From an uncultured archaeon (GTDB lineage: Archaea; Aenigmatarchaeota; Aenigmatarchaeia; QMZP01; JAFGSV01): a DNA stretch of 41,958 bases. Location of the stretch: contig CAZXIU010000002.1 in NCBI GenBank assembly GCA_964640865.1, forward strand, positions 1 through 41,958. Reading direction: 5' to 3'. Of the stretch, positions 1-26,579 are shown piece after piece (within the stretch, counting starts at the first letter, position 1; each line of letters begins with the position of its first letter). A program made the translations under genes and the position numbers. The notes beneath the pieces were generated by a model. It did no database searches. It saw only the letters and a list, made by a program, of their open reading frames with translations, and was not told where the DNA came from.

Positions 1-180
1 CGACCGTACTCCCCAGGCGGCCCACTTAACGCTTTCGCTACGGCACTGGCAACCCACGTGAGATTGCCAATGTCTAGTGGGCATCGTTTACAGCCAGGAC
101 TACGGGGGTATCTAATCCCCTTTGCTCCCCTGGCTTTCGTCCCTCACCGTCGGATCCGTTCTGGTCTGGCGCCTTCGCCA

Positions 181-1183: not shown

Positions 1184-1216
<33 letters not shown>

Positions 1217-3222: not shown

Positions 3223-4323
3223 TCATTTATCGAGGAATTTGTCAACTTTCTTCTTTGCTGATTCACGTTTTTTCTGATGCTCCGTGAGGAAGGTTTCCAT
3301 TTTACCTATGAGAATTTGTTTGAGTTCGCCTGTAAGCAGAGCACCTGATTTGTAATCTTCCCGGATTTTTTCGATTTTCCTGTCATCTGGTTCGAACTGC
3401 GTGAACAGATACTGGAATGAAACATCTATATCAGGATTCCCGCCGTGTTTCCGGTGCTCTTCAACTGTTTCACGTCCTCCGGAGAATGCATATTTGTTTA
3501 TTTTATTTTTTGCCTCTTTCGGGCTGTCTGTCAATGATATATATGAATAGGGGTCAGAGCTTGACATCTTTCCTCCCTTTAGTCCCTTTATGAAACGATG
3601 ATATGTTGCTCCGGGAAGCGTGAAACCGAGTTCTTTCTGGAAACGCGCTGCAATGTCGCGGGAAAGCCTTATGTGCGGATCCTGATCTATGCCAACGGGC
3701 ACGACCACATTCTTCGTCCCGCCAAATTCTTTTAGCTGGGGATGGAGGATATCGGAAACCTGAAGCATCACAGACATAATCTTGCCGGGCGAAAGTTCGC
3801 CGTATATTGCATGAAGCTCGTTCATCGTCACTTTCTTTGCAGCCATGCTTGCCAGTTTGTAGTAAGGACTGGCTTTGTCTTTAGAGCGGTTGCTCTGGAA
3901 GTAGAAATCACAATTCTTTGGTTCAAGACCTAGTGCAATATAATTGAGAAGATATTCTTCTATTGCTGTTTCTCTTAGCTTCTCCATGTCCGCAAGCCTC
4001 ATGTTGTAGGCCTCCACATCTGCTACGCAAAGGAACACTTTTGCGCCGAGTTCTTTCTGATGGTATATAATCTGGTCTGCCAGTATCTTGTGACCGAGAT
4101 GGAACTTACCGCTGGGCATGAGTCCTGTCATCATTGCATAATTTTTTGCAGCAAGAACCCTGTCAAAATCCCTGTGACCAAAGATCACACCCCTTCTCAT
4201 GAGCAGGTGGGGATTCTTTATTTTCTTCAGTACACTTGTAAAAGGTGAGATGCCGAAATCCTTGGCTGTTTTTGCATAGTCCTTTACATCATCCGAGCCC
4301 CATGGATTGATTTCTTTTTTCAT
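3223..4323 (-). CDS. trpS: Tryptophanyl-tRNA synthetase (archaeal/eukaryotic type)
   Basis: HIGH-type motif GKFHLGH, KMSKS-type motif KMSSS, and class Ic architecture. The ATG at 4323-4321 overlaps the tyrS TGA by 1 nt. Confidence 0.9.
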   Translation of the reverse strand: MKKEINPWGSDDVKDYAKTAKDFGISPFTSVLKKIKNPHLLMRRGVIFGHRDFDRVLAAKNYAMMTGLMPSGKFHLGHKILADQIIYHQKELGAKVFLCVADVEAYNMRLADMEKLRETAIEEYLLNYIALGLEPKNCDFYFQSNRSKDKASPYYKLASMAAKKVTMNELHAIYGELSPGKIMSVMLQVSDILHPQLKEFGGTKNVVVPVGIDQDPHIRLSRDIAARFQKELGFTLPGATYHRFIKGLKGGKMSSSDPYSYISLTDSPKEAKNKINKYAFSGGRETVEEHRKHGGNPDIDVSFQYLFTQFEPDDRKIEKIREDYKSGALLTGELKQILIGKMETFLTEHQKKRESAKKKVDKFLDK

Positions 4324-5399
4324 CAACTTGTCACCTCAAAATTCTTCACTTTTTCGAGAAGCTTCTTTGCTTTTGCATTCTTTTCAAAATGCTTTCGGAC
4401 AGGTTCCACAAGCTGGTTTATGTGGTCTGAGACAGCATTCTTGAGGTCCATCGGATGGAGCTTGCCGCTTTTGTAAATGCCCACAAGATCGCTGTACGAT
4501 TCTATGCTCAGGTTTCCGCCAAACTTTTCAGGTCGTTTCACTTCCAGTGTTTTGAATTTCTCGAATATGATGTGTTTGCAGTATTCCATTACTGGATTTT
4601 CTTCCACTATTTTTTCAGGGCAGTAGGCTTTTGATATTTTTCTGTTTATTTCTTTTTCGCTATCATCCATGAATATTGCTGTGTCCGGCTTGCTTTTTGA
4701 CATCTTCATCTCTATTGCTCTTTCTGTTGCATCCTTGGATATTGTTGCATGTTTTCCGAGCCCCATGAGCATGTGATGGCTGACAACAACAGGCTTCCAG
4801 AAACCGAGTTTCGGACCTATTTCCCTTGCCAGCATGTTGACCTTCCGCTGGTCCATCCCCAGTTGCGTGATGTCGCATTTCAGCTCGAATATGTCAGCAG
4901 CCTGCATGCAAGGATAGAGTATCTGCGACGCCGAAAGGGTTTCACTTTCCTTTCGGCCCATTATCTGGGCGCATCTCAGCACCCTTTTTACTGTACTGTT
5001 CCTCGCTACTTCCATTACAGTTTTCCAGTACGTTTCATTCCCGAGAAGGTCGCTTGAGCGCACGAATTCTATTTTTTCTATGTCCATGCCTGCGGATTTC
5101 CAGACCTCGAGCATGTAATCGCCTGCGATGTGAATCTTATCGAGGTCCCCCCCAAGCTTGTTGTTCGCCCATCCGTGCCAGTCAGCAACGAGCATCTTGA
5201 ACTTCACGCCTGCCTTTATCATCTTGTTTACATTAATTGCCCTGAGGATGCCCTGCGCTATGTGTATCCGTCCGGAGGGCTCGAAACCGTCATAAGCAAC
5301 AGGCCTGGTTTTTGACTGAAGAAGTTCCCTGAGGTCATCCTCGGTTATGATTTCCTCACCGACCGACCTTATCATATCCATCCTGCTTTCGATGTCCAT
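4323..5399 (-). CDS. tyrS: Tyrosyl-tRNA synthetase (archaeal type)
   Basis: Contains FEPSGRIHIAQG, YPCMQAADI, KMSKS and the C-terminal KRPEKFGGNL...LHPMDLKNAV block typical of archaeal TyrRS. Confidence 0.92.
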   Translation of the reverse strand: MDIESRMDMIRSVGEEIITEDDLRELLQSKTRPVAYDGFEPSGRIHIAQGILRAINVNKMIKAGVKFKMLVADWHGWANNKLGGDLDKIHIAGDYMLEVWKSAGMDIEKIEFVRSSDLLGNETYWKTVMEVARNSTVKRVLRCAQIMGRKESETLSASQILYPCMQAADIFELKCDITQLGMDQRKVNMLAREIGPKLGFWKPVVVSHHMLMGLGKHATISKDATERAIEMKMSKSKPDTAIFMDDSEKEINRKISKAYCPEKIVEENPVMEYCKHIIFEKFKTLEVKRPEKFGGNLSIESYSDLVGIYKSGKLHPMDLKNAVSDHINQLVEPVRKHFEKNAKAKKLLEKVKNFEVTS

Positions 5400-7781: not shown

Positions 7782-8330
7782 ATGATATTGACACTGCTTT
7801 TTGTATTCCTTGCGGGCATGTCCACAAGGCTGTCGGACATGGTTGCTGACGGTGAACTCAGAGCCAGGAAATTTTATGGTTATGCACTCGGTATATCATA
7901 CGGAACCCTTACGGCATTAGTAGTGGCACTGAATCCCATACTGGGAGATGTCGCAATCGCAGTCATACTCTCTGTGCTTCTGACTGGAAAAATAGACAAT
8001 CGCATACATTACCTCGGTATAGGGGCATTCGCTGCTTTCATAGCTTTATCCGGCATAAATCCCATAGGAAATGTTCCCATACTTCTGGCCTTCATAGCAG
8101 CCGGGGTTATTGACGAGATAGGCAATGACTACTCTGACAGGAGGAAGAAGAATGATGTCATAGGTATATTCTTCCAGAAGAGAATGGTTATGGAACTCAC
8201 GTCCTTCCTTGTGACACTTGTCACAGGAGAGATTGTATTCTTCATTTCGCTGATAATATTCGAGATTGGCTACAGTTACATATTCATGACACCTCCAGGT
8301 AAAAAACTATTAAGACTGACGAAACAATGA
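7782..8330 (+). CDS. Hypothetical integral membrane protein (182 aa)
   Basis: Multiple hydrophobic helices. One-nt gap to the upstream gene and an ATGA-type overlap with the downstream gene. Confidence 0.6.
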   Translation: MILTLLFVFLAGMSTRLSDMVADGELRARKFYGYALGISYGTLTALVVALNPILGDVAIAVILSVLLTGKIDNRIHYLGIGAFAAFIALSGINPIGNVPILLAFIAAGVIDEIGNDYSDRRKKNDVIGIFFQKRMVMELTSFLVTLVTGEIVFFISLIIFEIGYSYIFMTPPGKKLLRLTKQ

Positions 8331-9580
8331 TGTTTATGGAGTTAAAGTTTCTCGGTGGATGCCAGGAAGTCGGAAAATCATCGATTTTTGTGAACACAGG
8401 AAAAGAAAAATTCGTAATGGACCACGGCATAGAGGTGCAGGAAGGGCACAGCCCGATTCAGCCACCCATGGATCTCAGCGGTGTTTTCATAACGCATGCG
8501 CATCTTGACCATTCAGGGTTTGTTCCAGGGCTTTACAGCAGAGGATACAGGGGAAGGACGTTCGCCACGCCTGCGACCTTTGACATCTCACATATGCTTC
8601 TTGAGGACTCACTAAAGGTTCAGAAAAAGAGAGGAATGACACAGGGCTTCACAAGCCAGGACATACGGACCATGGGGAGAAACGAAAAAATAATGGCTTT
8701 CAATGACCCCCAGGAAATTGGTTCCAGCACAGTGGAACTGCTGTCAGCAGGTCATATTCCCGGTGCGTCAATGGTGAAGATTGAAAGCCGCGCAGGAAGC
8801 ATTCTGTACACAGGTGATGTGAAATTCATATCAACTGACTTCATGTTTGGCGCAGATTCGGATGTTGGACATGTACAGACACTCATTTCAGAATCCACAT
8901 ATTCATACAAGAATCATCCGGACAGGGATGAACTGAAGAAGAAGCTGCTTGAGATTATAGAGGACACATGCCACAATGGCGGAATAACGATTCTTCCTGC
9001 ATTCGCTGTCGGAAGGACGCAGGAGATACTCATGATGCTGAAGGACATACAGTTCCCGATATATGTCGACGGCATGGGCATACGCGCAACCCACAGGATG
9101 CTCTCGCATCCAAAATCATTCCGCAATCCCGGCATGCTTCGGGAAGCCATAGAAAGGGCCCACTGCATAAGGAAGCAGCCTGAGAGAAAGGAGGCTGTCA
9201 GCGGTCCTGCTGTCATAATAACAACAGCAGGTATGCTCCAGGGAGGCCCTGTCAGTTTCTACATAAGCCAGCTCGCTAAAAGAAAGGACTGCTCAATGGT
9301 GCTGACAGGATATCAGGTCGAAGGAACAGCAGGACGTACACTCATGGATACAGGCATATATGATAACGGGGAGATGACAGCAAATCCGGAATTTCCGATA
9401 CATTTCCTGGACTTCAGCGCTCACACAGACAGGGATCATCTGATTGAATTCTATAAGAAAGTTAACCCGGAAAAGCTCGTGCTTGTCCATGGAGACAGGA
9501 CACCTGAATTCGCTGAAGAGCTCAGGGGAATGGGATTCGACGCAATTGCCCCCAAGAACGGCGACTCCCTCAAAACGTGA
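8327..9580 (+). CDS. Metallo-beta-lactamase / beta-CASP ribonuclease (aCPSF2-like, no KH domains)
   Basis: MBL motif THAHLDHSG, N-terminal LGGCQEVGKSS, about 415 aa, and a C-terminal HGD motif. Confidence 0.75.
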   Translation: MMFMELKFLGGCQEVGKSSIFVNTGKEKFVMDHGIEVQEGHSPIQPPMDLSGVFITHAHLDHSGFVPGLYSRGYRGRTFATPATFDISHMLLEDSLKVQKKRGMTQGFTSQDIRTMGRNEKIMAFNDPQEIGSSTVELLSAGHIPGASMVKIESRAGSILYTGDVKFISTDFMFGADSDVGHVQTLISESTYSYKNHPDRDELKKKLLEIIEDTCHNGGITILPAFAVGRTQEILMMLKDIQFPIYVDGMGIRATHRMLSHPKSFRNPGMLREAIERAHCIRKQPERKEAVSGPAVIITTAGMLQGGPVSFYISQLAKRKDCSMVLTGYQVEGTAGRTLMDTGIYDNGEMTANPEFPIHFLDFSAHTDRDHLIEFYKKVNPEKLVLVHGDRTPEFAEELRGMGFDAIAPKNGDSLKT

Positions 9581-9609
9581 TTCTTTAAAACGTGAATCTG
9601 TATAATTTT

Positions 9610-10653
9610 ATGAGCAAAAACTTCGTTGAGGTCGACGGTTCCATAATGGAGGGAGGGGGGTCCATATTGAGGCTCACATCAGCGCTTTCTGTGCTTACGC
9701 AGAAGTCTGTGCGCATATTCAACATACGCTCCGGAAGGCCGCAGCCGGGGCTGAGAACGCAGCATCTGAGGGGACTTGAAGCCACTGCAGAGATGTCAGG
9801 CGGAAGACTCGAAGGAGCCAGAATCGGTTCCACGGAAGTGTTCTTCTATCCTGGAAATGATAAGAAGGATGAAATCACAGTGCCCATAGAGACTGCAGGG
9901 TCAACCGGGCTTGTTCTTCAGTCACTGCTTTTGTCATCCCTGCGCTTGAAGAAGAAACTCACAATAAACATAGACGGCGGAGCGACATTCGGAAAGTATG
10001 CCCCACCGCTTCAGTACATACAGTTTGTGCTGCTTCCTATACTCAGAAAAATGGGATATCATTCTGAAATCAACATCATCCGTCACGGATTTTTCCCAAA
10101 TGGCGGAGCTGTTGCCAAGGTGATTGTCCAGCCGCCTGAAGAGCTGAAGCCGATAAATCTCACTGAACAGGGGAAAATAGAGGCAATTGACGTTATCTCC
10201 GTAGCGTCAATGAGGCTCAAAAAGCCGAGGGTTTCCGAGCGTCAGTACAGGGAGGTCGAGCTAATGTTAAAGAAGAGGGGATACGAGCTCAACATAAAGA
10301 AGCAGTATTCGGAAAGCGCATGTCATGGTTCGGGTGTCGTCCTTGTAGGAAGAAGCGACACCGGATGCATAATAGGTGCTGACGGGCTCGGGGAAGCGGG
10401 GAAGTCAGCTGAAGAGGTTGCGGCTGAGGCTGTCAATTCATTCAACAGAACCGTAGATTCAGGAGCATGCGTTGATGAATACATGAGCGACCAGCTATTG
10501 CCATATATGGCACTGGCTAAAGGGAAGTCGTCCATAAAGGCACCTATGCTGTCAAGTCACGCACAGACCAACATTCACATTTTGGAGCAGTTCCTTCCCG
10601 TGAAGTTCAATGTTTCGGAAAAGGGAAACTGCATTCTGATAGAGACTATCTGA
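9610..10653 (+). CDS. rtcA: RNA 3'-terminal phosphate cyclase
   Basis: N-terminus VEVDGSIMEGGGSILRLTSALS and RPQPGLRTQHL are typical RtcA blocks. Start chosen at MSKNF. Confidence 0.88.
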   Translation: MSKNFVEVDGSIMEGGGSILRLTSALSVLTQKSVRIFNIRSGRPQPGLRTQHLRGLEATAEMSGGRLEGARIGSTEVFFYPGNDKKDEITVPIETAGSTGLVLQSLLLSSLRLKKKLTINIDGGATFGKYAPPLQYIQFVLLPILRKMGYHSEINIIRHGFFPNGGAVAKVIVQPPEELKPINLTEQGKIEAIDVISVASMRLKKPRVSERQYREVELMLKKRGYELNIKKQYSESACHGSGVVLVGRSDTGCIIGADGLGEAGKSAEEVAAEAVNSFNRTVDSGACVDEYMSDQLLPYMALAKGKSSIKAPMLSSHAQTNIHILEQFLPVKFNVSEKGNCILIETI

Positions 10654-12062: not shown

Positions 12063-12174
12063 TGGACTGGGTGGGAATTTCAGACTGGAAGCAGATTGCA
12101 TCTGCTTCATGCGCCTTTTGAACCCACGGCCTCCCGATTGCCAACCGAGCGATCTACCACTGATCTACCAGCCC
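12063..12174 (-). tRNA. tRNA-Ala (GGC) with a 40-nt intron in the T-loop at 59/60 (12077-12116)
   Basis: Acceptor GGGCUGG/CCAGUCC with G3:U70 and A73. The anticodon loop UU-GGC-AA is uninterrupted. The T stem is GUGGG...CCCAC. BHB: UUCA:UGAA central helix, bulges AAA and AUU, and inner helix GGC:GUC plus a 9-bp hairpin. Confidence 0.85.
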
Positions 12175-13092: not shown

Positions 13093-13207
13093 TGGGCCGA
13101 GCAGGATTTGAACCTGCGATATCCGCCTTACTTACACCTGCCGTCGGCATGCTGCTCAACGAAAGGATGCTGTAAGGGCGGCGTCATAACCACTAGACCA
13201 CCGGCCC
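13093..13207 (-). tRNA. tRNA-Val (UAC) with a 42-nt intron at 37/38 (13129-13170)
   Basis: Acceptor GGGCCGG/UCGGCCC with A73, anticodon stem CCGCC/GGCGG, and loop CU-UAC-A...A. BHB: CUUA:UAAG central helix with bulges CAG and UAA. Confidence 0.88.
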
Positions 13208-13324: not shown

Positions 13325-13443
13325 TGCGACCGCCGGGATTTGAACCCGGGTCGCTGGCTTTTTTCAAGCTTTTCAACTTTTGCCTGAGCTTTTCCGAAAA
13401 GCTTATGGGAAGCCAGAGTCCTGCCAGACTAGACTACGGTCGC
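13325..13443 (-). tRNA. tRNA-Gly (CCC) with a 46-nt intron at 37/38 (13360-13405)
   Basis: Acceptor GCGACCG/CGGUCGC with A73, anticodon stem CUGGC/GCCAG, loop UU-CCC-A...A, and T arm CCGGG-UUCAAAU-CCCGG. The inner helix AAGCUUUUC:GAAAAGCUU is perfect. The central helix has one mismatch. Confidence 0.85.
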
Positions 13444-16012: not shown

Positions 16013-16453
16013 ATGGCCGGACGGTATCCTTCAACGTCATTCGGTACGCATACCCAGACTGAATTGTGCAACAACTATTTCGATGTTATGGAAAACGGAA
16101 GCGACTGGCGCGATGTTGAAACAGCTTACAGGAATTTTATGAGCAATAACCATGCCGAGAGAGGCGTGGGAATACTGACGAATGACCATATGATTTCGGA
16201 TGTTGAGAAGAGCCACATGATTTACAAAGCTGAGACACTGAACAAATTCCAGAGCGCGCACGGCGTCTCGACTGTTCTTTACGACAACTGGGAAACTGAA
16301 GAACATGCTTACAAAGAACTCATGGACTTCCTGAAATTTAATTCCACAGACTTTGAGATAAGTCTAGCTGAAAAAAATCACAGACGATACGAGAGGAACA
16401 GGAAGTGGCATCTAATCAAGAAAGGCCTGTCCCTCATAGGGCATGGATTCTGA
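16013..16453 (+). CDS. Hypothetical protein (146 aa or shorter)
   Basis: ORF fills the gap between rpl35ae and trm1. No motif recognised. The start is uncertain (alternative MENGSDW). Confidence 0.5.
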   Translation: MAGRYPSTSFGTHTQTELCNNYFDVMENGSDWRDVETAYRNFMSNNHAERGVGILTNDHMISDVEKSHMIYKAETLNKFQSAHGVSTVLYDNWETEEHAYKELMDFLKFNSTDFEISLAEKNHRRYERNRKWHLIKKGLSLIGHGF

Positions 16454-16486: not shown

Positions 16487-17578
16487 ATGGTTAGAATAAC
16501 AGAGGGAAAGGCTGTAATTGAGATACATGAGCAGCCTGTGACCCGAAAGGCAGAGGCATTCTACAATCCTGAAATGGAATACCAGCGCGATATAACGATG
16601 TCAGCCCTGAGGATTTTTGGCAGGGGAAAGGACATGTATGTATGCGACCCTCTCGCAGGAACCGGCATAAGGAGCCTGAGGATGGCAGCAGAGGTTCCTG
16701 GCGTGAAGAGCATACTTGTGAATGACATGAGCGAAAGCGCATTCGCTGTACTGAAGAAGAACATAGGCAATGCATGCATAGAAGGCACGGAGATAAATGT
16801 CAGCAACAGGCACGCACGAGACATTTTCAGTGAAAATACCAAGGCTTTTGATTTCATAGATATAGACCCATTCGGGTCTCCGATAGGATTTCTCGAAGGG
16901 TCAGCATCGTCACTGAAAAACAGGGCGCTGTTCGCGGCAACAGCAACCGATACGGGCGCTCTATGCGGAGCATTCCCGAAAACATGCCTGAACCGATACA
17001 GCATAAAGTCATTCAAAACAGACTTCTTCAAGGAGGTCGGCATAAGGACGCTGATTACTGCAGTAATGAGAGAGATGGCTGATGAAGGCATATCATTCGA
17101 GCCAATGTATTCGCATGCGAATCACTACTTCAGGGTCATAGGCATTACAAGACGCGACTCTAAAAGAGTGGCAGCCCAGCAGAAGCTCGTAAAGGATGTT
17201 TCCTTTTGCAGCATATGCCTCTTCAGATTTGCGGGGTCTGCTGGCAAATGTCCTGAATGCGGGAGCAATTTGAATGTCATCGGACCGTTATGGACAGGAA
17301 AAATACTTGACAGAGATTTCTGCAGAAGAATGCTGAATGATCTGGAGTCAAAAGGTTACAAAAAGACAAAAGAGCTTTCAATGGCTTTGGAGGATGGCGA
17401 TTCACCTTTCTTCTATGACCTTCACAAGCTTTACAAGCTTACGAAGAAGACTCCACGGAAGATTCGCGATGTCATAGGGTGCCTTGAGGAAAATGGTTTC
17501 AAAGCGACCAGAACTTATCTCTCGGGGACAGGTATCAGGACAGACGCTCCCTATGGGAAGATTATCAACTGCCTATGA
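16487..17578 (+). CDS. trm1: tRNA (guanine26-N2)-dimethyltransferase
   Basis: Contains FYNPEMEYQRD, DPLAGTGIRSLR, IDIDPFGSP and a C-terminal Cys4 cluster (CSIC...CPECG). Confidence 0.9.
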   Translation: MVRITEGKAVIEIHEQPVTRKAEAFYNPEMEYQRDITMSALRIFGRGKDMYVCDPLAGTGIRSLRMAAEVPGVKSILVNDMSESAFAVLKKNIGNACIEGTEINVSNRHARDIFSENTKAFDFIDIDPFGSPIGFLEGSASSLKNRALFAATATDTGALCGAFPKTCLNRYSIKSFKTDFFKEVGIRTLITAVMREMADEGISFEPMYSHANHYFRVIGITRRDSKRVAAQQKLVKDVSFCSICLFRFAGSAGKCPECGSNLNVIGPLWTGKILDRDFCRRMLNDLESKGYKKTKELSMALEDGDSPFFYDLHKLYKLTKKTPRKIRDVIGCLEENGFKATRTYLSGTGIRTDAPYGKIINCL

Positions 17579-18136
17579 CTCTTCACCAGTCTCTTCGCGC
17601 CTTTCCTTCATGCCTTCATCCGCAAGCATCTCTAGCGACGCCTCAGCTGTGGTCACAGTCTTCATTCCGTACTTTTCCTTGCACCAGTTCATGAAATTGT
17701 TTATGTAGTCCCTGCACATATGCACGTAACTCTCGCGCATCTTGGCGTAGAACATGTAGTTGTAGAAAATCCAAATGTACTTGGTGAACCAGTTAACATT
17801 TCCGAATGAGTTCTTTATCTCACCGTATAGCTCGAGGCTGAAATCGCCGTCCTTCTTTCCCTTGGAAACATAACCGAGTGCACGGAGGGTGATGAACATG
17901 TTCGTGAACCTGCTGAATTCCTTTTTCACCACCCATTCGTTATAGAACCTTATGGGATCGCCTGTGTAATCCCATAACAGTTTCTTTTCCATGCATCTGG
18001 TGCTGGAGACATCAAATATGAACCTCAGGTTCTTTCTGAGGTTCGAAAGGAATCCCACAGGGTCAGGCCCTGAGTAGCTTATCCATGTCATTCTTCGCGG
18101 TACAAGGCATTCGTCTGTTATTACAAGCTTACCCAT
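17573..18136 (-). CDS. Hypothetical protein, paralog A of a tandem pair (187 aa)
   Basis: Shares its layout with the upstream 177-aa ORF: Y.GP.P near the N-terminus, a central beta-like segment, an aromatic-rich C-terminal helix, and ...EKYG/EQYG. It has an additional acidic tail. Confidence 0.6.
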   Translation of the reverse strand: MGKLVITDECLVPRRMTWISYSGPDPVGFLSNLRKNLRFIFDVSSTRCMEKKLLWDYTGDPIRFYNEWVVKKEFSRFTNMFITLRALGYVSKGKKDGDFSLELYGEIKNSFGNVNWFTKYIWIFYNYMFYAKMRESYVHMCRDYINNFMNWCKEKYGMKTVTTAEASLEMLADEGMKERREETGEES

Positions 18137-18662
18137 ACTGCTCCCTCAGGTCCTTGAAGTAATCAATAAGCTGCTGCTGCATCATTGAAAGCAGATTCCT
18201 TCCTTCAAGAATGTATTCCCTTCGCCTGTTGTGATAGAACATCCTGTGCCAGAATACCCTGATCATCTCATAGAATATAGTCCTCTGCCAAAGCGTGTCC
18301 TGCGGGTACTCGGTCCTGAGAAGAGGCCTTATTGTTATGCTAGCTTTTCCTGCCTTCTCGGTGCCCTCCCCTTTGACATCTATCCTTATGAAGAAGTAAG
18401 TGAACTTGTCGAGATTCCTGTGAAGGAAGAACCGCACATTGAATTTCTCTTTCTCGCCCTTGCCCCAGTCGAATATTTCCTCATGGAGGTCGGATTCAGT
18501 TGCATTGAAGACAGACTTCACAAGCTCCCTTGTCTTCGGGTACAGCTTCATCGGATTCGGGCCTACATAGCTGTGTATGGAACGCGGTGAGCCTTTTGCT
18601 GTTCCCTTCGGAGGGAAAATCTCCTCCTCAACGAGCATTTTCATTCTTGCTAATATCGGCAT
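18129..18662 (-). CDS. Hypothetical protein, paralog B of a tandem pair (177 aa)
   Basis: See paralog A. Overlaps it by 8 nt, implying co-translation. Confidence 0.6.
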   Translation of the reverse strand: MPILARMKMLVEEEIFPPKGTAKGSPRSIHSYVGPNPMKLYPKTRELVKSVFNATESDLHEEIFDWGKGEKEKFNVRFFLHRNLDKFTYFFIRIDVKGEGTEKAGKASITIRPLLRTEYPQDTLWQRTIFYEMIRVFWHRMFYHNRRREYILEGRNLLSMMQQQLIDYFKDLREQYG

Positions 18663-18713
18663 AGTGCATCACATACCCTATTTTTATTAATTCGTGAATA
18701 GATTATTAAATAT
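18663..18713. promoter_or_regulatory. Divergent promoter region (TATA-like TTTTTATTAA and ATTATTAAATAT)
   Basis: AT-rich 51-nt spacer between divergently oriented genes. A similar box, CATTTTATTAAT, lies about 30 nt upstream of the ATG at 18923. Confidence 0.4.
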
Positions 18714-18884
18714 ATGTTCGGATTATGGGGTCTTGCTTTCGGAATTATTCTTCTTGCTTTCGGAGTTTTCGCTATATTCTTCTTCCCGAGTTCTCAGACG
18801 CATCAGGAGGAATCCCTTGCAGTAGGAGGCATTGTCATGGGTGTGATTGCCATTGTGATAGGCGCAATGCTCGTGTTCTGGTAG
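18714..18884 (+). CDS. Small two-helix membrane protein (56 aa, below the ORF-track cutoff)
   Basis: Hand translation gives MFGLWGLAFGIILLAFGVFAIFFFPSSQTHQEESLAVGGIVMGVIAIVIGAMLVFW. It sits at the head of the plus-strand unknown cluster. Confidence 0.5.
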   Translation: MFGLWGLAFGIILLAFGVFAIFFFPSSQTHQEESLAVGGIVMGVIAIVIGAMLVFW

Positions 18885-18922
18885 TTAAAACATTTTATTA
18901 ATTTATCCTATAATAGTTCTTT

Positions 18923-20623
18923 ATGGCTGGAGACAAGGAAATCGATGTAAAGACATTGGACAGGACCAACGAGCCTGATGTGCTGATATTTGACTGGCTG
19001 TGGAAATGGAAAGATGAAAACAAAGGAATTCTCAACGGCGGAGAAGCCATGTGCAACTGGCCTCCTGACCAGACAGTGATGATGAATGCCACAACACCCC
19101 TTGGTCACGGCAATCTCATTTATGCCATACTCACGTACACCATGCCGAAGTTTCATTATTCTTTTTACAAACTCTCGGAGAGCCTTACTGTGTCGCCTTC
19201 ATATCCGGAGATGTACGGAAGGATAATATCCAAGAAACGGGAAATCGAGGGGCACATAAAATCAGGAATGGCGTCAGCTGCGCAGGCTGTTGCCGATTAT
19301 GACCTTCTTAAGCACGACGAAAGGAAGTATCGTGAGGTACTGGACTACTTCAAGGAAGGAAACAAGGACGAGCATGTGCTCAGGTCGCTCTTCATAGACA
19401 GGGTGGATGCACATACAGGTGAGGGCTATTCGATGATTTCAATGACAAAGAGGTGGCCTACCATAATCACAGACTTCATAAGGCTTTCAATTGTTCCCAA
19501 GGACGAACGGGCTGACACCAAGAAAATAAGAAAGCAGCTAGAGATTTCAGAGGCAGAGGCAACTGTGCTGAAGACCAAGGACAGGATATTCAATGAATGG
19601 AAAACAATCTTCTTCCCTGACATAAAGGACAGGTATGCAAGGATAAAGAACCTTCTTGAGGCAAGGAAGAAGTCCATAGACGAGTACCGGGAATGGCTGA
19701 AGCCGTATGTGGCCAACCTCAAGATGATGAGGGAAGGAACTGAAATCAATCCTTCCCAGGTTCTCACGAAAGCAATAACCCCTTGGCACAAGCCCAATGC
19801 CATGTACGAGGTAAGGCTTCTCATGTGGAAGATGTTCACAGCAGAGGAGGTAGGCAAGCCCGGTTTCGTTGAGGGCGAGATAGAACCGTATGATGATTTT
19901 GTCAGGAGACTGACACCAAAAATAGAGAAGCATTACGAAATCCGCATAGTGAAGTCAAGGAAGGACGCCAAAAAGATAATTGATAAGGAGAACCTCGTGG
20001 AAGACGACGTGATAGTGGTCGACGAGATGCTCGCCAAGTGGTACAAGGGCGAGGACAGGCATAATTACGAGGGCGACCCTCCTATATCAAAAGACAGGTA
20101 CTACTACTGCATGTACGACATAGAGATAATCAGCCCGATATTCAAGATGGAGGCAGGCAAAGAGGAAGTGGATGACTGGAACTGCATGATAACACCATTT
20201 CTTGTCAGCCAGAACATTGTGCTTCTCGCGCTCCTTGAGATAGAAGCGAAAGAACGCTGGATGAAGAAGTACGTAAAGGAGCTGATAGGGGTCAGGGAAA
20301 TCGAGGACAAGATAAGAAAGGAAGTCGAGAAGAGATACGGGCTTGATGATTCAGAAGAGAAGAAGAGCATATTTGCATTCTACAAGAACATGAAAGCGAG
20401 GAACAAGGCTTTTGGCGACCGGTTCGATGACTGGGTTCTCTATAACAAGCCTAAGATGAGGCATGTGCTCAAGTACTTCATGAGGATAGGGCCATACGAG
20501 ACTGTTACGAATGAAAGGCTTTCGAAGATGTACGGAAGGTATATGGGAGGAGGTTACACAGACCCTCTCATAAAGTTCGTCAAGGCTCAGTTTGGCAAAT
20601 TGTCAGGCGTTCAGCCTCCATAG
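18923..20623 (+). CDS. Hypothetical protein (566 aa), no recognisable domain
   Basis: Long ORF, Lys/Glu/Trp/Tyr-rich, with predicted helical/coiled stretches. No P-loop, nuclease or TM motif was seen. Confidence 0.7.
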   Translation: MAGDKEIDVKTLDRTNEPDVLIFDWLWKWKDENKGILNGGEAMCNWPPDQTVMMNATTPLGHGNLIYAILTYTMPKFHYSFYKLSESLTVSPSYPEMYGRIISKKREIEGHIKSGMASAAQAVADYDLLKHDERKYREVLDYFKEGNKDEHVLRSLFIDRVDAHTGEGYSMISMTKRWPTIITDFIRLSIVPKDERADTKKIRKQLEISEAEATVLKTKDRIFNEWKTIFFPDIKDRYARIKNLLEARKKSIDEYREWLKPYVANLKMMREGTEINPSQVLTKAITPWHKPNAMYEVRLLMWKMFTAEEVGKPGFVEGEIEPYDDFVRRLTPKIEKHYEIRIVKSRKDAKKIIDKENLVEDDVIVVDEMLAKWYKGEDRHNYEGDPPISKDRYYYCMYDIEIISPIFKMEAGKEEVDDWNCMITPFLVSQNIVLLALLEIEAKERWMKKYVKELIGVREIEDKIRKEVEKRYGLDDSEEKKSIFAFYKNMKARNKAFGDRFDDWVLYNKPKMRHVLKYFMRIGPYETVTNERLSKMYGRYMGGGYTDPLIKFVKAQFGKLSGVQPP

Positions 20624-20631
20624 GTGTTTCT

Positions 20632-22434
20632 ATGCCGTTTAAGGTTGGTGTAACAACAGGACTCTATTATATCGCCCATGATGTCAGCCTTGCGAGTACC
20701 GTGAAGAAAATCGGTTATACCCTTACAAGGGGAGCAAGTGTTGTCGAGATATCAGGCGACACACCCCACGAGATAACCGAGACAGAAGGCACTGAGATAA
20801 GGAACGTCAAGAAGAACCAGGGGCTTGAAACGCTTTTTCACGGCAGCCTCACAGTGCCGATGTGCATGCCTGAGCGTACGGACTGGAGGGATGCACAGGA
20901 CCACATGGAGAAGTCCATGCGTTCGGCTGTCAACGGAGGATGTCACTACGTTCTTTTCCACGCATGCCTTCATTTCTGGGTCGAACTGCTCACATACACA
21001 GGTACCAAGCTCACGATTACCATGTGCGACCATGACGGGCGTTTCATTTCCGAGATACTCTACGAGAATGCTCGCCTGAGGAAATGGTTCGTCAAGAACA
21101 TGCGAAACCTCGGTGACATTCAGTATCACAGCATGATATTGAGCGAGGATGAAATTTATGATGCCCAGTACAAAGCCCACGGAAGAATGAGGGCATGGCA
21201 GGATGACGAGACCAAGAAGAGGGTTGAAAATCTCTACAAAGAACTGGGAATGAAAGACATAGAGGGGAAAAGCAACCTTACACCTGATGAGGCCAGGAGG
21301 TACAACAAGTACAGAATAGAAGCAGAAGCCATACGTCAGGAGGTCGGCTCTGAATCCGGTGCCAAGGAAGCCAGACTCGTGAGAGAATATGTTGACAAGG
21401 AGGTCGAGAAGAAGCTTTCCAGAGATACTTATGAAACAAGAAAATGGCGGATAGACACATACGGAAGGCTTGTGGACGCGTACAAGGTCATGGCTCATTA
21501 CCTTTTCTTCACAAAGGACCCGCAGTGGTTGGCTATGACAGATGTCTATTCAGGCCTCATGAAGAGATACAAGATGGATTATAATGATGATGAATGGCTT
21601 ATGAAGTCATGGGACATGGCGGAAAAGAACAATGATACAGAGTTCAAGCAGTTCTTCTATGCAGTTGTTGGCGCCAAGTTCCTCGAGGGGCATCTGAAGA
21701 AGCTCGAGAGCTGGAAAAACAATGAATTTATCGAGAAAGAGCTAAAGGGCAAGCCAGACCTTCAGGAGATTGCCCGCAACCTTCAGGTGACAATAGAGAT
21801 ACCCGACGCCAGAGACCCAAAATATGCCGGGCGCTACATGCTCTCGCATCCGAAGCAGATATATTCAGCTGTGAAGACAACAAGGGAGCAGATAAAGAAA
21901 AGCAACATATGGATGACCATAGACAACGAGCACCTTGCAACGCAGGGCTACGATCCATGGGTAGAGGGAAAGATGATGGCCGAGAAATATCCGGACTACG
22001 GAAGCATGGTGCAGTCAGTGCACGCCACTTATCCGACGCCGCTGCATTCCCACTATCCCATAGAGCTCGGGCAGGTTGAAGTCTATGAGCTTTTGTGGTA
22101 CCTGAGGACAGCTGGCATGGGAAAAAAGAACAATGTCTTCCTGATATTCGAGCGAGGCGGGGGGGATGACCCGTTCAGGCAGTCCGTGGATGCGCTGAAG
22201 CTTATGGCCAAGTTCCTCGATCAGGACGTGAAACCAGAGGACCTTCCAATAGAATTCTTCGGTCTCGAGAAGACAGCTTTCGATAAGAAGCGGCAGTCGC
22301 AGATAATGATGGACCACAGGTTCGATGTGCTCAAGGACCTGTTTGAGATGCCGGAAGAGGAATGGGGACTGCTTTCAACTTCAGCAGTGAAGAAGGGCAA
22401 GAGGGACATCTTCAAGAAGGAAGATCTTAGGTGA
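20632..22434 (+). CDS. Endonuclease IV / xylose-isomerase-like TIM-barrel protein with a large (~240 aa) helical insertion
   Basis: Blocks align to Nfo metal ligands: LFHG (H70), LFHAC (H110), VTIEI (E389), TIDNEHLATQGYD (D431, H434), VHAT (H464), LHSH (H472/H474) and IFERGG (E507). Nfo has about 35 residues between the second His and the Glu; here there are about 280. Confidence 0.65.
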   Translation: MPFKVGVTTGLYYIAHDVSLASTVKKIGYTLTRGASVVEISGDTPHEITETEGTEIRNVKKNQGLETLFHGSLTVPMCMPERTDWRDAQDHMEKSMRSAVNGGCHYVLFHACLHFWVELLTYTGTKLTITMCDHDGRFISEILYENARLRKWFVKNMRNLGDIQYHSMILSEDEIYDAQYKAHGRMRAWQDDETKKRVENLYKELGMKDIEGKSNLTPDEARRYNKYRIEAEAIRQEVGSESGAKEARLVREYVDKEVEKKLSRDTYETRKWRIDTYGRLVDAYKVMAHYLFFTKDPQWLAMTDVYSGLMKRYKMDYNDDEWLMKSWDMAEKNNDTEFKQFFYAVVGAKFLEGHLKKLESWKNNEFIEKELKGKPDLQEIARNLQVTIEIPDARDPKYAGRYMLSHPKQIYSAVKTTREQIKKSNIWMTIDNEHLATQGYDPWVEGKMMAEKYPDYGSMVQSVHATYPTPLHSHYPIELGQVEVYELLWYLRTAGMGKKNNVFLIFERGGGDDPFRQSVDALKLMAKFLDQDVKPEDLPIEFFGLEKTAFDKKRQSQIMMDHRFDVLKDLFEMPEEEWGLLSTSAVKKGKRDIFKKEDLR

Positions 22435-22463
22435 TTTTTAATAAATGAGGGGTAATTATAGGA

Positions 22464-23675
22464 ATGGCTGTAAAAAAGGTTGATTCTGAACCGAAGACTG
22501 AAGTATCAATGGATGAATCTGATTTCGTTGAAATGGACTTCAAGAAGAAGGAGTCCAAGAAGCCTGACGAGATAGAGGAAGTCAACGACAAGAAGGAACG
22601 GATAGACATACTCAAAAGGTTCACAAAGGAAGTTCTGAAGAGGCACGGCGCGCTCATAAGGTCTGTTGTCCTTTTCGGTTCAACTGCAAGGGAAGAATGG
22701 GAAGGCAAGTCAGACATAGATGTTTTCGTTATAATTGATGACACAAGGCAGAAGATAACGCCGATGACCAAGGATAAGCTTGACAGGGATCTGGTGGAGA
22801 TTTCCAAGAGCATACATTCGCAGCTTTCAGTGCAGCAGCCGTACCTGCTGACAGAGTTCTGGAACATGGTAAGGCTCGGCCATCCGATAGTTTTCAATTT
22901 CATCAGGGAGGGCGTTCCGATATACGACAAGGACACATTCCTTCCGATAAAGCGCCTGCTTCAGATGGGAGAGATAAAACCCAGCAAGGAGGCTGTCGAG
23001 AAGTACATAGAAAGGGCACCCAAGAGGATAAAGCGGGTGGAGAACGCCAAGATGTACATGGTCGTTGAGGACTGCTACTATGCGATGATGGAATCCGCGC
23101 AGGCTGTGCTCATGTTTCTAGGCGAGACGCCGCCAAGACCTTCGGATGCAGCAGATGCACTGAGAAGGTCAACTGTGAAGATAAAGCTTCTTGAACCCAA
23201 GTTCGCTGACTGGATGGAGGAAATGGTAGCCACAAGAAAAGACGTGGAGCACAGGAAGAAACAGTCCATGTCAGGTGAGGAGCTCGACCGCTGGATAAAG
23301 AAGACAAAGCAGTTTGTGAAGAGGATGCAGCAGCTCATTGTGAGAATAGAGATAATGAAGAGGGAGAACATAATAGAGAAGTCCTATGACATAATGAAAG
23401 AGACCACGATAACCCTCCTCAAGGCCACGAAGCAGATGCCTAAGAAAGGCAACCCTGAAATAGAAAAGCTTTTCGAGACGAAGCTCGTGAAAACAGGGCT
23501 GATTTCAGACAGCTATCTCACGGCATTCAAGGAACTCAGGAAGCTGAAGGATTCCTCTGCTGATGGCAAATCCCTTGAGATGCCGAAGCAGCACATTCTG
23601 CTGCAGAGGGAATACGTCAGAAAGTTCATACGCGAGGTCGGGAAGATACTCAAGGAAAAGAAGTACACAGAGTGA
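22464..23675 (+). CDS. Nucleotidyltransferase (Pol-beta/MNT type) fused to a HEPN domain, with a Lys/Glu-rich N-terminal tail and an extra C-terminal helical region
   Basis: NTase motif LFGSTAREEWEGKSDIDVFVII. HEPN-type Rx4H motif RKDVEH in the central helical domain. Confidence 0.75.
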   Translation: MAVKKVDSEPKTEVSMDESDFVEMDFKKKESKKPDEIEEVNDKKERIDILKRFTKEVLKRHGALIRSVVLFGSTAREEWEGKSDIDVFVIIDDTRQKITPMTKDKLDRDLVEISKSIHSQLSVQQPYLLTEFWNMVRLGHPIVFNFIREGVPIYDKDTFLPIKRLLQMGEIKPSKEAVEKYIERAPKRIKRVENAKMYMVVEDCYYAMMESAQAVLMFLGETPPRPSDAADALRRSTVKIKLLEPKFADWMEEMVATRKDVEHRKKQSMSGEELDRWIKKTKQFVKRMQQLIVRIEIMKRENIIEKSYDIMKETTITLLKATKQMPKKGNPEIEKLFETKLVKTGLISDSYLTAFKELRKLKDSSADGKSLEMPKQHILLQREYVRKFIREVGKILKEKKYTE

Positions 23676-24322: not shown

Positions 24323-24877
24323 TCATTCAGACTTCTTCCTGAACTCGGATATTATCTTCTCCGCGACCTCTTCCGGTTTCATGCTTGTCGTATCCAGAAC
24401 AAGGTCGAAACACCCCTTGTCGTGAATATCGACGTCATAGTATTTTCTGTATCTCTTGATATCGCTTTCAAGACGCCTTCTTATGGCTTCTGCTGTCTCC
24501 TTTTCATCAGCGTATCGGCTTTCATTCCTCTTGCTGTTGCTCCTGACATCCTCATAAATCCTCTTCGCACCTACTTCAAATTTTACATCAAGAAAAACCT
24601 TGAATGAATGCGGGATGAGAAAGAAACTCGTTCTTCCCTCTATTATGAAGTTGTCCTCCTTTTTCCCCAGCTCTTTCTGGAAATCATCGACCTCTTTGTC
24701 TGTCCATGGTTCATTCTCGCCTATTTCATTCAATTGGTCGAGGTTCATACCCCTTTTCCGGGCAATCTCCCGCCTCATTCCTCCCACGTAATACCGTTTC
24801 ATGCTGAGTTTTCTGGAAATAATCTTCGCAACAGTACTCTTTCCTGCACCGGGCATGCCTGAAATGCTTATTATCAT
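24323..24877 (-). CDS. cmk: Cytidylate kinase, archaeal type
   Basis: P-loop ISGMPGAGKST, about 180 aa, with an archaeal CMP-kinase-like layout. Confidence 0.7.
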   Translation of the reverse strand: MIISISGMPGAGKSTVAKIISRKLSMKRYYVGGMRREIARKRGMNLDQLNEIGENEPWTDKEVDDFQKELGKKEDNFIIEGRTSFFLIPHSFKVFLDVKFEVGAKRIYEDVRSNSKRNESRYADEKETAEAIRRRLESDIKRYRKYYDVDIHDKGCFDLVLDTTSMKPEEVAEKIISEFRKKSE

Positions 24878-25746
24878 CTTACCATATCCCCAAGCTGGTC
24901 CAGAATATCGACAATCTTCTTTTCCCTTTCGGGCTCTTCGAAGATTATCGTACCGGTTATACCATAAGATAATGCGGTTCTTATTAAATGCTCCAGCTTG
25001 AGGTCTGATCCTATGAAAGACATATGTCCTAGCTCCCCGGACGGTCCGTACTTTATGCCCGAGAAGAAGAAGTAAGCATCACGCATCCATGCCTGGCCGA
25101 TGCCCCTGTTGAGCTGGTCAACCACGCTTCTGAAGTTGTCCTGTGTTTTCAGGTATCCGGCACCTCTGGCATGTATATGCGCCCAGTTTATCACAGGCTC
25201 CGTGTTTGTGGTCCTTTTGCATATCTCTATTACATCTTCAATACTTCCGAGTTCTCCTACCCTTCCTGTGTTCTCTATGCCTATCTTCGCTTTCACCCTG
25301 AGCTCATTGACAATCTCATTTATCTTGTAAACAACGAGCTTAAGTGCCTGCTGCTGGGGCATTCTCGAATAGAAATTGGGATGTATTGCGAATGTCCTGC
25401 AGTCCATGACAGATGATATTGTCGAGAAGAGCCTGAGCTTGTTTTCAGGCATGTCCCCGAAATCTGTCTGCCTGAGAGAGAGCTCTATGCCGAATTTCTT
25501 TGCTATGTTCTTCAGTCTCAGGAGGTCGCCATAGTATTCCTTGTACAGTTCAGTCGTGTCCTGTATGTTCGCGAAAAGCTCCGGGGGGAGGACAAGCGCC
25601 CTGAATCCGACCTTGTACAGTTCTCTCAATGCTTCAAGAGCCTGGTCTATTGTCTTTACAACAGGGATAGTGGAAACACCATATGTCACCCCTATTTTCA
25701 TTCCAAGCCTGTCCTGCATTTTCAGGGCTTTTTTTCGTGTTAGCAT
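24874..25746 (-). CDS. Endonuclease IV-like TIM-barrel protein (divergent)
   Basis: FAIHPNFY, IGIENTGRVGELGS, INWAHIHARG and IIFEEPE align with Nfo blocks. The HLND block is replaced by FFFSG, so part of the metal site looks altered. Confidence 0.55.
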   Translation of the reverse strand: MLTRKKALKMQDRLGMKIGVTYGVSTIPVVKTIDQALEALRELYKVGFRALVLPPELFANIQDTTELYKEYYGDLLRLKNIAKKFGIELSLRQTDFGDMPENKLRLFSTISSVMDCRTFAIHPNFYSRMPQQQALKLVVYKINEIVNELRVKAKIGIENTGRVGELGSIEDVIEICKRTTNTEPVINWAHIHARGAGYLKTQDNFRSVVDQLNRGIGQAWMRDAYFFFSGIKYGPSGELGHMSFIGSDLKLEHLIRTALSYGITGTIIFEEPEREKKIVDILDQLGDMVR

Positions 25747-25814: not shown

Positions 25815-26579
25815 CTAAGCTGCTTGTGCAAGAACCTGCGGACGTAACAAAGAGCCGATATAACCGGAAGCTTCCTGTTTGTATCTCCTCATGTTGTCTC
25901 TGAAACTTGTGATATTCGAATTTCCATAGTCCTTTCTGTACTTCTTCTGTTCTGTAATGTATGAGTTCGTTCCAGATTCTATATCAGCGTTCGCCTCTAT
26001 TATATCCCTCGCATCCTCTCTTTCACTTGTCAGTTTCCTTATTGTGCCGCTGTAGTCCTGGTTGCTGTGGAACGTCTCGTGGTCAACTGTCTTCTGCAAT
26101 TGCTCTTCGTTCATTCCTATGTAGTTTCCTGTAGCCAGTGACTTATCTATCACAAGCCTGCTTGTTTCCGGATTGTATGTGCCGTTCACTCCCATGAGCT
26201 TTTTCACGCCATTCTTTGTCTTTACATACCAGCCCGGAAGGTCCTCAACTGCTATCTTCAGCTTTCCCCAGTGGAAAGGTATTGCTCCTTCCTTGTACCT
26301 GAAATAGTCCGTGAACTTGTCTATTGCGCGGCTTACGTATTTTCCGACGAGCGATTTTGAGTTTCCAAGATATGTCGGCTCCGGGAGGTCGTCTTTCCCT
26401 ATGAGACTATTTGACATTGAATCCGGAATCACATTGTATTTATTCCCAAGTTCTTTCAGTACAGACTTGTATGAATTCTCGTCTATATTCACCTCTAAGG
26501 CTCTCTTTGCAGGGCTTTCAACGAATTCAGGGCCTGCGTAAAGCTCTCTTTGCAGTCTTTCTAAAGGTGAATCTGCCAT
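25815..26579 (-). CDS. Hypothetical protein with an HExxH motif (putative Zn metallopeptidase)
   Basis: VDHETFHSNQ is the only recognisable motif. No signal peptide or TM segment was seen. Confidence 0.5.
   Translation of the reverse strand: MADSPLERLQRELYAGPEFVESPAKRALEVNIDENSYKSVLKELGNKYNVIPDSMSNSLIGKDDLPEPTYLGNSKSLVGKYVSRAIDKFTDYFRYKEGAIPFHWGKLKIAVEDLPGWYVKTKNGVKKLMGVNGTYNPETSRLVIDKSLATGNYIGMNEEQLQKTVDHETFHSNQDYSGTIRKLTSEREDARDIIEANADIESGTNSYITEQKKYRKDYGNSNITSFRDNMRRYKQEASGYIGSLLRPQVLAQAA

Follow-up and report, generated by a model that had tools for sequence, protein, structure and literature searches.

The stretch analysed here, positions 1 to 41,958 of contig CAZXIU010000002.1 (assembly GCA_964640865.1) from an uncultured archaeon of the Aenigmatarchaeota and in the following called the window, harbors a compact cluster of six genes, A to F. 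This cluster probably encodes an undescribed multi-protein machine, whose sole recognizable part is a metal-dependent enzyme resembling endonuclease IV (Endo IV), the product of gene E. As to its function, we favor a multi-subunit phosphoesterase complex of the Endo IV type that acts on nucleic-acid lesions or 3' ends, a reading to which we give a probability of roughly 0.4. We regard the cluster as a phylum-specific functional module around a catalytic subunit because its linkage withstands rearrangement, its putative bidirectional promoter is conserved, its families share an identical phyletic restriction and the active site of protein E is conserved almost absolutely. A first-pass annotation of the window had proposed six open reading frames (ORFs) with gaps of 8 nucleotides (nt) between D and E and of 29 nt between E and F. 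All of them were found:

Gene A, 17573-18136, minus strand: ORF of 187 amino acids (aa)
Gene B, 18129-18662, minus strand: 177 aa; its last 8 nt are shared with the beginning of A
B-C spacer, 18663-18713, no strand: 51 nt, AT-rich, divergent
Gene C, 18714-18884, plus strand: 56 aa; two hydrophobic helices
Gene D, 18923-20623, plus strand: 566 aa; orphan
Gene E, 20632-22434, plus strand: 600 aa; starts 8 nt after D
Gene F, 22464-23675, plus strand: 403 aa; starts 29 nt after E

A scan of one genome per GTDB species revealed relatives of E in 99 genomes, and 80 loci were kept, each on a contig of a different assembly. Gene order was compared in 51 non-redundant species-level loci whose sequence upstream of E spans at least 3.6 kb. 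The arrangement A(-)B(-)|C(+)D(+)E(+) is identical in 47 of these and its recurrence puts the cluster far beyond chance; a lack of co-occurrence, for which the first-pass annotation had proposed to check, was thus not seen. Two further loci (L036 and L046) are inverted to D(-)C(-)|B(+)A(+)E(+), with all five genes kept and A running directly up to E at its stop codon, and the remaining two comprise one locus broken by a scaffold gap and one (L083) with E alone. A adjoins B in 49/51 loci, and the median gap is 7 nt both between A and B and between D and E. Across the phylum, sequence identity ranges from 25 to 72% for A and from 38 to 88% for B, with minima of 28% for D and 35% for E, and the gene order is intact even where the identity of A and D has dropped to 25-29%. 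The flanks vary by clade: trm1 and a KaiC gene are present in close relatives only, and elsewhere ABCE1, a TrmB-like regulator or a DNA ligase is found. Thus the five-gene linkage outlasts much of the surrounding synteny.

The distribution of the families is equally narrow. At least 283 homologs each were obtained for D and E, and all taxon-named ones belong to the Aenigmatarchaeota, except for three with generic or probably mis-binned labels; B has 43 homologs. If the D profile was compared against 1.84 billion representative proteins, 239 clusters (50% identity) were matched at E-values of 0.001 or below, and the best 150 of these 239 look like D-family proteins or their fragments, with no outside relatives among them. 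Divergent short forms of D (390-430 aa) were checked as well: they contain no Pfam domain and the taxon-named ones are again Aenigmatarchaeota. Inheritance looks vertical, and the phylum-restricted distribution together with the single locus per kept assembly is the signature of a lineage-specific core function.

Three deep-branching lineages (L086, L087 and L088) encode a short D (392-426 aa) and an adjacent E-like gene, 5-32 nt apart, while A, B and C were not detected beside D-E in these three. Since the deep lineages keep the D-E pair only, this pair is the ancient core of the cluster, whereas A, B and C are a feature of the main clade. Consequently, the six-gene unit of the first-pass annotation has to be refined: its genes do co-occur and are co-oriented across the phylum, but they do not form a uniform block, given that D-E is the core and that F follows E in 24 of 46 loci. 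In L086, three genes for multi-transmembrane proteins lie upstream of the short D, and in L087 (7504-7935) and L088 (237-584) the gene divergent from it encodes a protein of 115-143 aa, whose amphipathic helix at the N-terminus is followed by a disordered middle rich in Pro and Arg and by a similar coiled-coil motif at the C-terminus. Furthermore, the E-like protein of L086 (9263-11116) carries an N-terminal glutaredoxin-like domain, in which no CxxC motif was seen by eye.

For protein E, an Endo IV-type fold with a huge insertion had been suggested, and both the structural model and the Foldseek search agree with it. The AlphaFold2 model (predicted local distance difference test, pLDDT, 86; predicted template modelling score, pTM, 0.83) comprises an eight-stranded, xylose-isomerase-like barrel with strands at residues 3-8, 37-41, 66-70, 104-110, 385-389, 426-431, 460-464 and 502-506. 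Its parts are as follows:

Barrel strands 1-4 (model), residues 1-127, 20632-21012, plus strand
Helical insertion of 257 residues between strands 4 and 5 (model, confidently all-helical), residues 128-384, 21013-21783, plus strand
Barrel strands 5-8 (model), residues 385-545, 21784-22266, plus strand
C-terminal tail with a PEEEW motif, conserved but of low model confidence, residues 546-600

The Pfam family PF01261 (AP_endonuc_2) scores 21.9 bits on protein E of the window, below its cut-off of 31.1, and is matched in 58 of 64 homologs, at best with an E-value of 3.3e-10. Foldseek assigned a probability of 1.00 to the Endo IV structures 4hno, 1qtw, 2nq9, 2x7v and 8rly, with E-values of 7.7e-3 to 3e-2, target-normalised TM-scores of 0.62-0.68 and root-mean-square deviations (rmsd) of 5.4-6.8 Å. 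The lowest rmsd among all full-length matches, 5.4-5.7 Å, was found for four of them (4hno, 1qtw, 2nq9 and 8rly). Ketose 3-epimerases and UlaE were matched with a probability of 1.00, too (E-values 5.9e-4 to 1e-2), with a full-length rmsd of mostly 9-16 Å.

As to the metal site, 139-142 of 142 sequences, deep forms included, retain each of nine positions (H70, H110, E389, D431, H434, H464, H472, H474 and E507). They are located at the C-terminal ends of strands 3-8 and in the loop after strand 7, and their order and spacing match the ligands H69, H109, E145, D179, H182, H216, D229, H231 and E261 of Nfo from E. coli; the single substitution, His472 for D229 of Nfo, is conservative. An hhalign comparison with E. 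coli Nfo placed the first five ligands in the same register, while its E-value of 0.1 is not significant. The tagatose epimerase of P. cichorii has C66 and L108 at the positions of H70 and H110. This difference favors a trinuclear site of the Endo IV/UvdE type over the mononuclear site of an epimerase. Since the epimerases share only four of the nine ligands, protein E is, judging from model and alignment, best described as a trinuclear metallo-phosphoesterase of the Endo IV type with a large insertion. The almost absolute conservation of the nine positions points to catalysis as the selected function. Nevertheless, we do not file E as an Nfo ortholog, because no curated nfo model matches it and it departs from the compact-monomer form of Nfo.

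Another aspect of protein E concerns the start of its insertion. Residues 133-203 (21028-21240; DHxGRFISEIL...LRxWF) match residues 99-169 of the large subunit of human DNA primase (PriL), with an E-value of 0.009 for the full-length E profile and of 4.6e-4 for a profile of the insertion only. This match covers 71 residues; no archaeal PriL was matched, the 50 best Foldseek matches do not include PriL, and E lacks the iron-sulfur (Fe-S) domain.

In contrast to E, proteins A to D resist classification. That they lack any recognizable domain had been claimed before, and searches of Pfam, NCBIfam and the PDB were indeed empty, as was PADLOC, apart from weak matches of C to generic small transmembrane families. 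PHROGs likewise yielded nothing for A, B and D. The prediction that the two minus-strand genes are tandem paralogs proved right: A and B are 20% identical over their full length (BLASTP E-value 4e-9), and their family hidden Markov models (HMMs) cross-match at 1e-11 to 1e-42 in every locus. A, the faster-evolving paralog, is rich in Trp, Tyr and Phe and ends in an acidic C-terminal tail. B evolves slower and comprises, according to its family alignment, the near-invariant motif LRTEYPQDTLWQRSLFYEMxRVFWHR (LRTEYPQDTLWQR...). The B profile matched no PDB sequence at an E-value of 10 or below, and a per-member Pfam scan of 29 B proteins gave no recurrent match. The two helices of C form a membrane hairpin, whose FFFP...HQ loop is conserved, and in all 59 loci in which its family HMM detected it, C is located between B and D.

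The AlphaFold2 model of D (pLDDT 77, pTM 0.76) shows long helical hairpins (residues 95-148, 210-268 and 476-516) and beta-sheets (42-90, 292-304 and 394-429), and the most conserved segment spans residues 105-260. In the structural check that the first-pass annotation had recommended, E matches an Endo IV-type barrel, and D found no significant fold match, with nothing at an E-value of 0.001 or below in either the PDB or BFVD. Nearly all top Foldseek matches of D, in the PDB (including that of phage AP205, 8toc) and in BFVD, are maturation proteins of single-stranded RNA phages (E-values 3e-3 to 0.1). We rejected them as evidence since the TM-score is about 0.1; they probably reflect a shared blend of long helices and long strands in the model. 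Comparison of the D profile with PDB sequences gave no informative match, and a per-member Pfam scan of 60 D proteins no recurrent family.

The four larger unknowns seem alike in composition, as was noticed by eye in the first place. The excess of aromatic residues is measurable: Trp, Tyr and Phe together make up 11-17%, whereas 21 other proteins encoded in the window have 8.5%, and the figures for Trp are 1.7-3.2% versus 0.66%. However, homology is not behind it. As hhalign detected no similarity between B and D, B and E or D and E, the common aromatic-rich composition does not indicate shared ancestry. Several of the proteins are basic, with isoelectric points (pI) of 8.6 for A, 9.5 for B and 9.3 for F, and of 9.4 and 9.9 for segments 95-270 and 476-566 of D. 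If long variants of A, B, D and E were searched for fusions, start-codon over-extension, longer insertions and low-complexity tails were all that was found.

The AT-rich 51-nt spacer, whose length and composition were borne out, had been taken for one promoter region shared by both arms, and the elements within it speak for this:

GTGAT Shine-Dalgarno-like element ahead of B, 18669-18673, minus strand
TATA-like box 1, about 18679-18692 (spacer sequence)
TATA-like box 2, about 18701-18713 (spacer sequence); the box centres are about 21 nt apart
Outside the spacer: TATA-like element TTTTATTAATTT, in the 38-nt gap between C and D

Twin AT-rich boxes about 20 nt apart and a CAC/CACC (GGTG/GTGAT) element beside the start of B recur in most of about 50 B-C spacers, across clades. 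We infer from this pattern an interdigitated bidirectional promoter, with transcription starts placed by the standard archaeal distance between TATA box and start. Box 1 would drive a leaderless mRNA for C, with a predicted rightward start near 18712. From box 2, with a predicted leftward start near 18681, B and A would be transcribed together behind a leader of about 19 nt, which includes the Shine-Dalgarno element.

Gene F was described as a fusion of a nucleotidyltransferase (NTase) and a HEPN domain, and Pfam confirms both:

Minimal nucleotidyltransferase (MNT), residues 51-157 of F: Pfam NTP_transf_2, 3.1e-9
HEPN domain, residues 192-288 of F: Pfam HEPN, 1.1e-3
Rx4H motif R258-H263, 23235-23252
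C-terminal helical extension, after the HEPN domain

The motifs G72-S73, D84xD86 and R258-K-x-x-E-H263 are invariant in 33 homologs. In the 46 loci with at least 5 kb downstream of E, F follows within 200 nt in 11 cases, within 5 kb in 12 and at a greater distance in 1, while 22 loci lack it. It is found after E in the very divergent lineages L086, L089 and L090 as well. Thus F is an old, frequent but dispensable partner of E. In L089 (321-2278, minus strand) and L090 (1-1321, minus strand), a pair of nucleotidyltransferase genes, of about 275 aa and 377 aa, takes the place of a single F after E. F matched the PADLOC candidate families PDC-S09 and PDC-M70A and, weakly, the MntA and HalB models; these PADLOC and NCBIfam matches comprise the generic NTase core only.

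How could such a machine work? E would be the catalytic subunit with a full trinuclear metal site, and its 257-residue helical insertion is probably a platform for docking or for substrate selection. D, with its coiled coils and beta-sheets, may be the obligate structural partner of E, to which the main clade would have added the basic A/B pair, likely a heterodimer, and the two-helix membrane protein C. The compact bidirectional promoter would allow both arms to be co-regulated, and the complex may be brought to the membrane by C or, in the deep lineages, by other membrane proteins. The likeliest chemistry would be phosphoester hydrolysis at damaged or blocked nucleic-acid sites, i.e., abasic sites or ends of the 3'-phosphate type, in DNA or RNA. 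In loci that have F, both of its activities, nucleotidyltransferase and HEPN, may target the same ends. This reading draws support from hints of three kinds, namely the ligand set shared with Endo IV, the basic charge of A, B and F and of parts of D, and the catalytic motifs that F has kept.

Several observations weigh against this reading. E matches no NCBIfam family at an E-value of 1 or below, the nfo models TIGR00587 and PRK01060 included, and its profile found no TIM-barrel match among PDB sequences, even with the insertion deleted. By Foldseek E-value the ketose 3-epimerases are slightly ahead of Endo IV (5.9e-4 versus 7.7e-3). Tyr72 of Nfo, a residue important for DNA binding, is apparently missing from E (HGSL versus HDSYL). 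Besides charge, nothing in the D and B families hints at nucleic-acid binding, and a conserved membrane protein is unusual in the operon of a DNA-repair enzyme. Finally, F is missing from the neighborhood in about half of the loci, and E occurs without A to D in L083 and in L044, the latter with less flank.

The most probable alternative is a membrane-proximal metabolic complex with a substrate other than nucleic acid. E would then be a sugar(-phosphate) isomerase or epimerase, or a phosphodiesterase that acts on lipid head groups or on precursors of the envelope, with D, A and B as scaffolds and C as anchor, e.g., for the remodelling of lipids or glycans scavenged from a host. We consider this unlikely. 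Ketose 3-epimerases and UlaE do lead the Foldseek matches by E-value, and many homologs of E were named 'sugar phosphate isomerase/epimerase' by JGI. Furthermore, a gene for a membrane or membrane-targeted protein lies beside D in every lineage (C, the multi-transmembrane trio of L086, or the amphipathic-helix protein of L087 and L088), and a high content of Trp, Tyr and Phe is common in carbohydrate-binding and membrane-interface proteins. However, five invariant His residues go beyond the E-D-H-E set of the epimerases and fit the trinuclear site of Endo IV, and the full-length rmsd, mostly 9-16 Å to epimerases versus 5.4-6.8 Å to Endo IV, points the same way. In addition, there is no sugar- or lipid-metabolism gene among the conserved neighbors, and the partner proteins are basic.

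One might also speculate about a membrane-tethered nucleic-acid-processing machine of a wholly new kind, unique to the Aenigmatarchaeota, in which E, as a nuclease or 3'-phosphoesterase derived from Endo IV, sits on scaffolds of novel fold (D and A/B) with C as membrane anchor, and the NTase-HEPN enzyme F takes part in the work. This we hold to be rather unlikely. If true, its role could lie in the processing or salvage of DNA or RNA taken up from a host or the environment, in organisms without nucleotide biosynthesis, or in the repair of RNA 3' ends, and it would represent a new enzyme-complex architecture with at least three new folds or families.

Quite improbable, in our view, is a phylum-specific structural or cytoskeletal machine for division, cell shape or the host contact site, for which D, with its coiled coils, and the helical domain inserted in E would supply the building blocks, with the barrel of E in a regulatory or accessory role. 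Long helical hairpins dominate D, whose weak matches are to coiled-coil proteins only, the insertion of E is a large and confidently predicted all-helical domain, membrane proteins are associated with the module, and it is retained throughout a phylum with very small genomes. On the other hand, the nine metal-ligand positions of E are conserved almost absolutely, the cluster lacks an NTPase, and no similarity to known archaeal cytoskeletal families was found, the best being CdvA with an E-value of 0.015 in 3 of 60 D members.

It is more improbable still that the cluster is not one system, i.e., that unrelated lineage-specific genes have stayed adjacent through conserved synteny, in reduced genomes that rearrange slowly. 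Other syntenic neighbors over a long range exist, namely ABCE1 upstream in 31 loci and cmk and a second TIM-barrel gene downstream; two loci (L083 and L044) have E without A to D, and the deep lineages have D-E without A, B and C beside it. Nevertheless, the five genes are contiguous with gaps of few nt, while their flanks change between clades, and the inversion in L036 and L046 moved A-B-C-D as a block that still abuts E. Moreover, the bidirectional promoter architecture is conserved and the four orphan families share one phyletic distribution.

Least of all do we expect a defence, toxin-antitoxin or stress-response module centred on F, since the intact MNT and Rx4H HEPN motifs of F, its matches to PDC-S09, PDC-M70A and, weakly, MntA and HalB, and the potential of E to be a nuclease are outweighed by matches confined to the generic NTase core and far under the family cut-offs (MntA: 23.8 versus 60 bits), by the fusion of both domains in one chain where type VII systems use two proteins, by the lack of any defence-family match, PADLOC included, for A to E, by the dispensability of F at the position after E, and by the occurrence in one phylum, once per kept assembly, in a fixed housekeeping setting and absent from mobile-element collections. 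Consequently, of the surveillance, repair or stress function that the first-pass annotation had put forward, the defence and stress part is supported neither by PADLOC nor by the distribution, while repair or nucleic-acid processing stays the best guess as to what the complex may do. The probability left over from the Endo IV-type reading and the four rivals falls to functions that we did not think of.

The genomic setting, said to be housekeeping (trm1, cmk) and free of marks of mobile elements, presented itself just so. Contig JAFGFG010000009.1, from a metagenome-assembled genome of Candidatus Aenigmatarchaeota, matches the window across a 17.8-kb locus around gene E, with 99% identity of the E product. 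Flanking the cluster are trm1, a KaiC-like ATPase gene and cmk. According to gene scans of the window, the neighbors are housekeeping genes, many of them related to RNA or translation; they also encode TrpRS/TyrRS, deoxyhypusine synthase, a beta-CASP nuclease, RtcA, Sua5, HisRS, Trm61, SRP54, NAD synthase, Pus10, TFB and aIF2-alpha. The GC content is flat over the cluster region, without a shift, the search for flanking repeats gave short chance matches only, and the tRNA scans found no tRNA adjoining the cluster. No relatives of D, E or B were detected in the IMG/VR, phage or plasmid collections. A mobile or viral origin was rejected in view of these empty searches and the lack of flanking repeats. 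Because of the housekeeping neighbors, the flat GC, the absence of repeats and the absence of relatives in these collections, the cluster is chromosomal core DNA rather than an island.

Some observations on the surroundings were made as well. ABCE1, which encodes a ribosome-recycling ATPase, lies convergent to the A/B arm, 0-3 kb beyond A, in 31 loci (L001, L003 and L087 included, one of them a deep lineage); trm1 holds its place in the clade of the window, and in L086 trm1 follows directly after F. Neighbors from RNA metabolism and translation are thus recurrent. Beside cmk, at 24874-25746 (minus strand), the window carries a second AP_endonuc_2 TIM-barrel gene, whose product is of ordinary size (290 aa), matches PF01261 at 2.8e-11 and has weak nfo matches. 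This gene is syntenic with cmk and F in many Aenigmatarchaeota loci. By eye, its product lacks a His at the position of H69 in Nfo, which makes its metal site seem less complete than the one in E; an hhalign comparison with the barrel of E gave no significant score. The 16S rRNA gene of the window is archaeal, and tRNAs that probably carry introns are encoded as well. The partial 16S gene (1-1533, minus strand) is 1533 nt long and covers model positions 1-843 only, which leaves about 690 nt of inserted sequence. Within it, on the same strand, an ORF at 182-775 has a sub-threshold LAGLIDADG_3 match (E-value 2.5e-4), and together they look like an rRNA intron with a homing endonuclease. Four Rfam tRNA matches, at 2281-2395 (plus strand), 3055-3188, 13093-13207 and 13325-13443 (all minus strand), were missed by ARAGORN. 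Their length of 115-134 nt suggests that introns are probably present. ARAGORN instead reported a 94-nt tRNA-Ala at 12081-12174 (minus strand). Two adjoining genes for class Ib aminoacyl-tRNA synthetases (TrpRS/TyrRS type) occupy 3223-5399 (minus strand) with a 4-nt overlap, and at 8327-10653 (plus strand) the gene of a beta-CASP RNA-metabolising nuclease is directly followed by that of the RNA 3'-phosphate cyclase RtcA. Further ORFs without a Pfam match are located at 16013-16453 (plus strand, 146 aa, present in close relatives only), 25815-26579 (minus strand, 254 aa) and 38984-40750 (plus strand, 588 aa).

The Aenigmatarchaeota are uncultured DPANN archaea with tiny genomes and presumed symbionts. 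Since a module of about 1,600 codons is kept in nearly all of these tiny genomes, it is likely central to their biology. Lineage-specific orphan modules are not surprising in themselves; this one is real and conserved, and its function is what we infer. Four of the five core proteins are complete orphans, and Castelle et al. (2021; PMC8204110) described an Aenigmarchaeota-specific module of protein families (Module 128) that is wholly without functional prediction. Families A to D fit the description of Module 128, a likeness by description only, while that paper contains no account of the cluster, its architecture or an Endo IV-like enzyme. In the literature we found no description of the cluster, of a rebuilt Endo IV-like enzyme or of its partners. 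The cluster thus offers an entry point to lineage-specific dark matter that has so far merely been counted, with one enzyme, a defined metal site and defined partners. Should its substrate be a nucleic acid at the membrane, this would bear on how presumed symbionts obtain or maintain nucleic acids.

If compared with known systems, the cluster differs from each of them in important aspects. It does not resemble an anti-phage defence island, as A to E have no PADLOC match, no mobile association and neither repeats nor a GC shift. With HEPN-MNT type VII toxin-antitoxin systems and KNTase-like proteins, F shares the MNT core (GS...DxD) and the Rx4H HEPN motif. However, type VII systems consist of two small proteins from a mobile, patchily distributed bicistronic locus in variable islands, whereas F joins both domains in one chain of 403 aa that extends beyond them at either end, occupies a fixed chromosomal place after E across divergent lineages and scores far under the MntA and HalB cut-offs. 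The ketose 3-epimerases and sugar-phosphate isomerases, such as D-allulose 3-epimerase and UlaE, have the barrel and the Glu-Asp-His-Glu ligands in common with E. They comprise a single Mn/Co site, whereas five further invariant His residues of E (70, 110, 434, 472 and 474), not all of which they share, indicate a larger metal cluster. They mostly superimpose with a larger full-length rmsd (9-16 Å), and there are no sugar-metabolism genes near E.

Closest is Endo IV itself (Nfo; PF01261/TIGR00587). E has the same (beta/alpha)8 barrel, and all nine positions of the trinuclear site are filled by invariant His, Asp or Glu. Yet Endo IV comprises about 285 aa, whereas E reaches 600 aa, of which 257 residues make up the insertion and 55 a conserved tail at the C-terminus, lacks a significant match to the nfo models or to any solved TIM barrel and apparently has no counterpart of Tyr72. 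While Nfo works as a monomer and is not known to have dedicated partners, the gene of E is paired with the orphan D (E stands alone in L083 and L044) and usually with A, B and C as well. An Endo IV scaffold rebuilt as a large, partner-dependent enzyme would widen the knowledge of this family of repair enzymes. Taken together, what is new here is an enzyme of the Endo IV superfamily with an unprecedented architecture and dedicated orphan partners.

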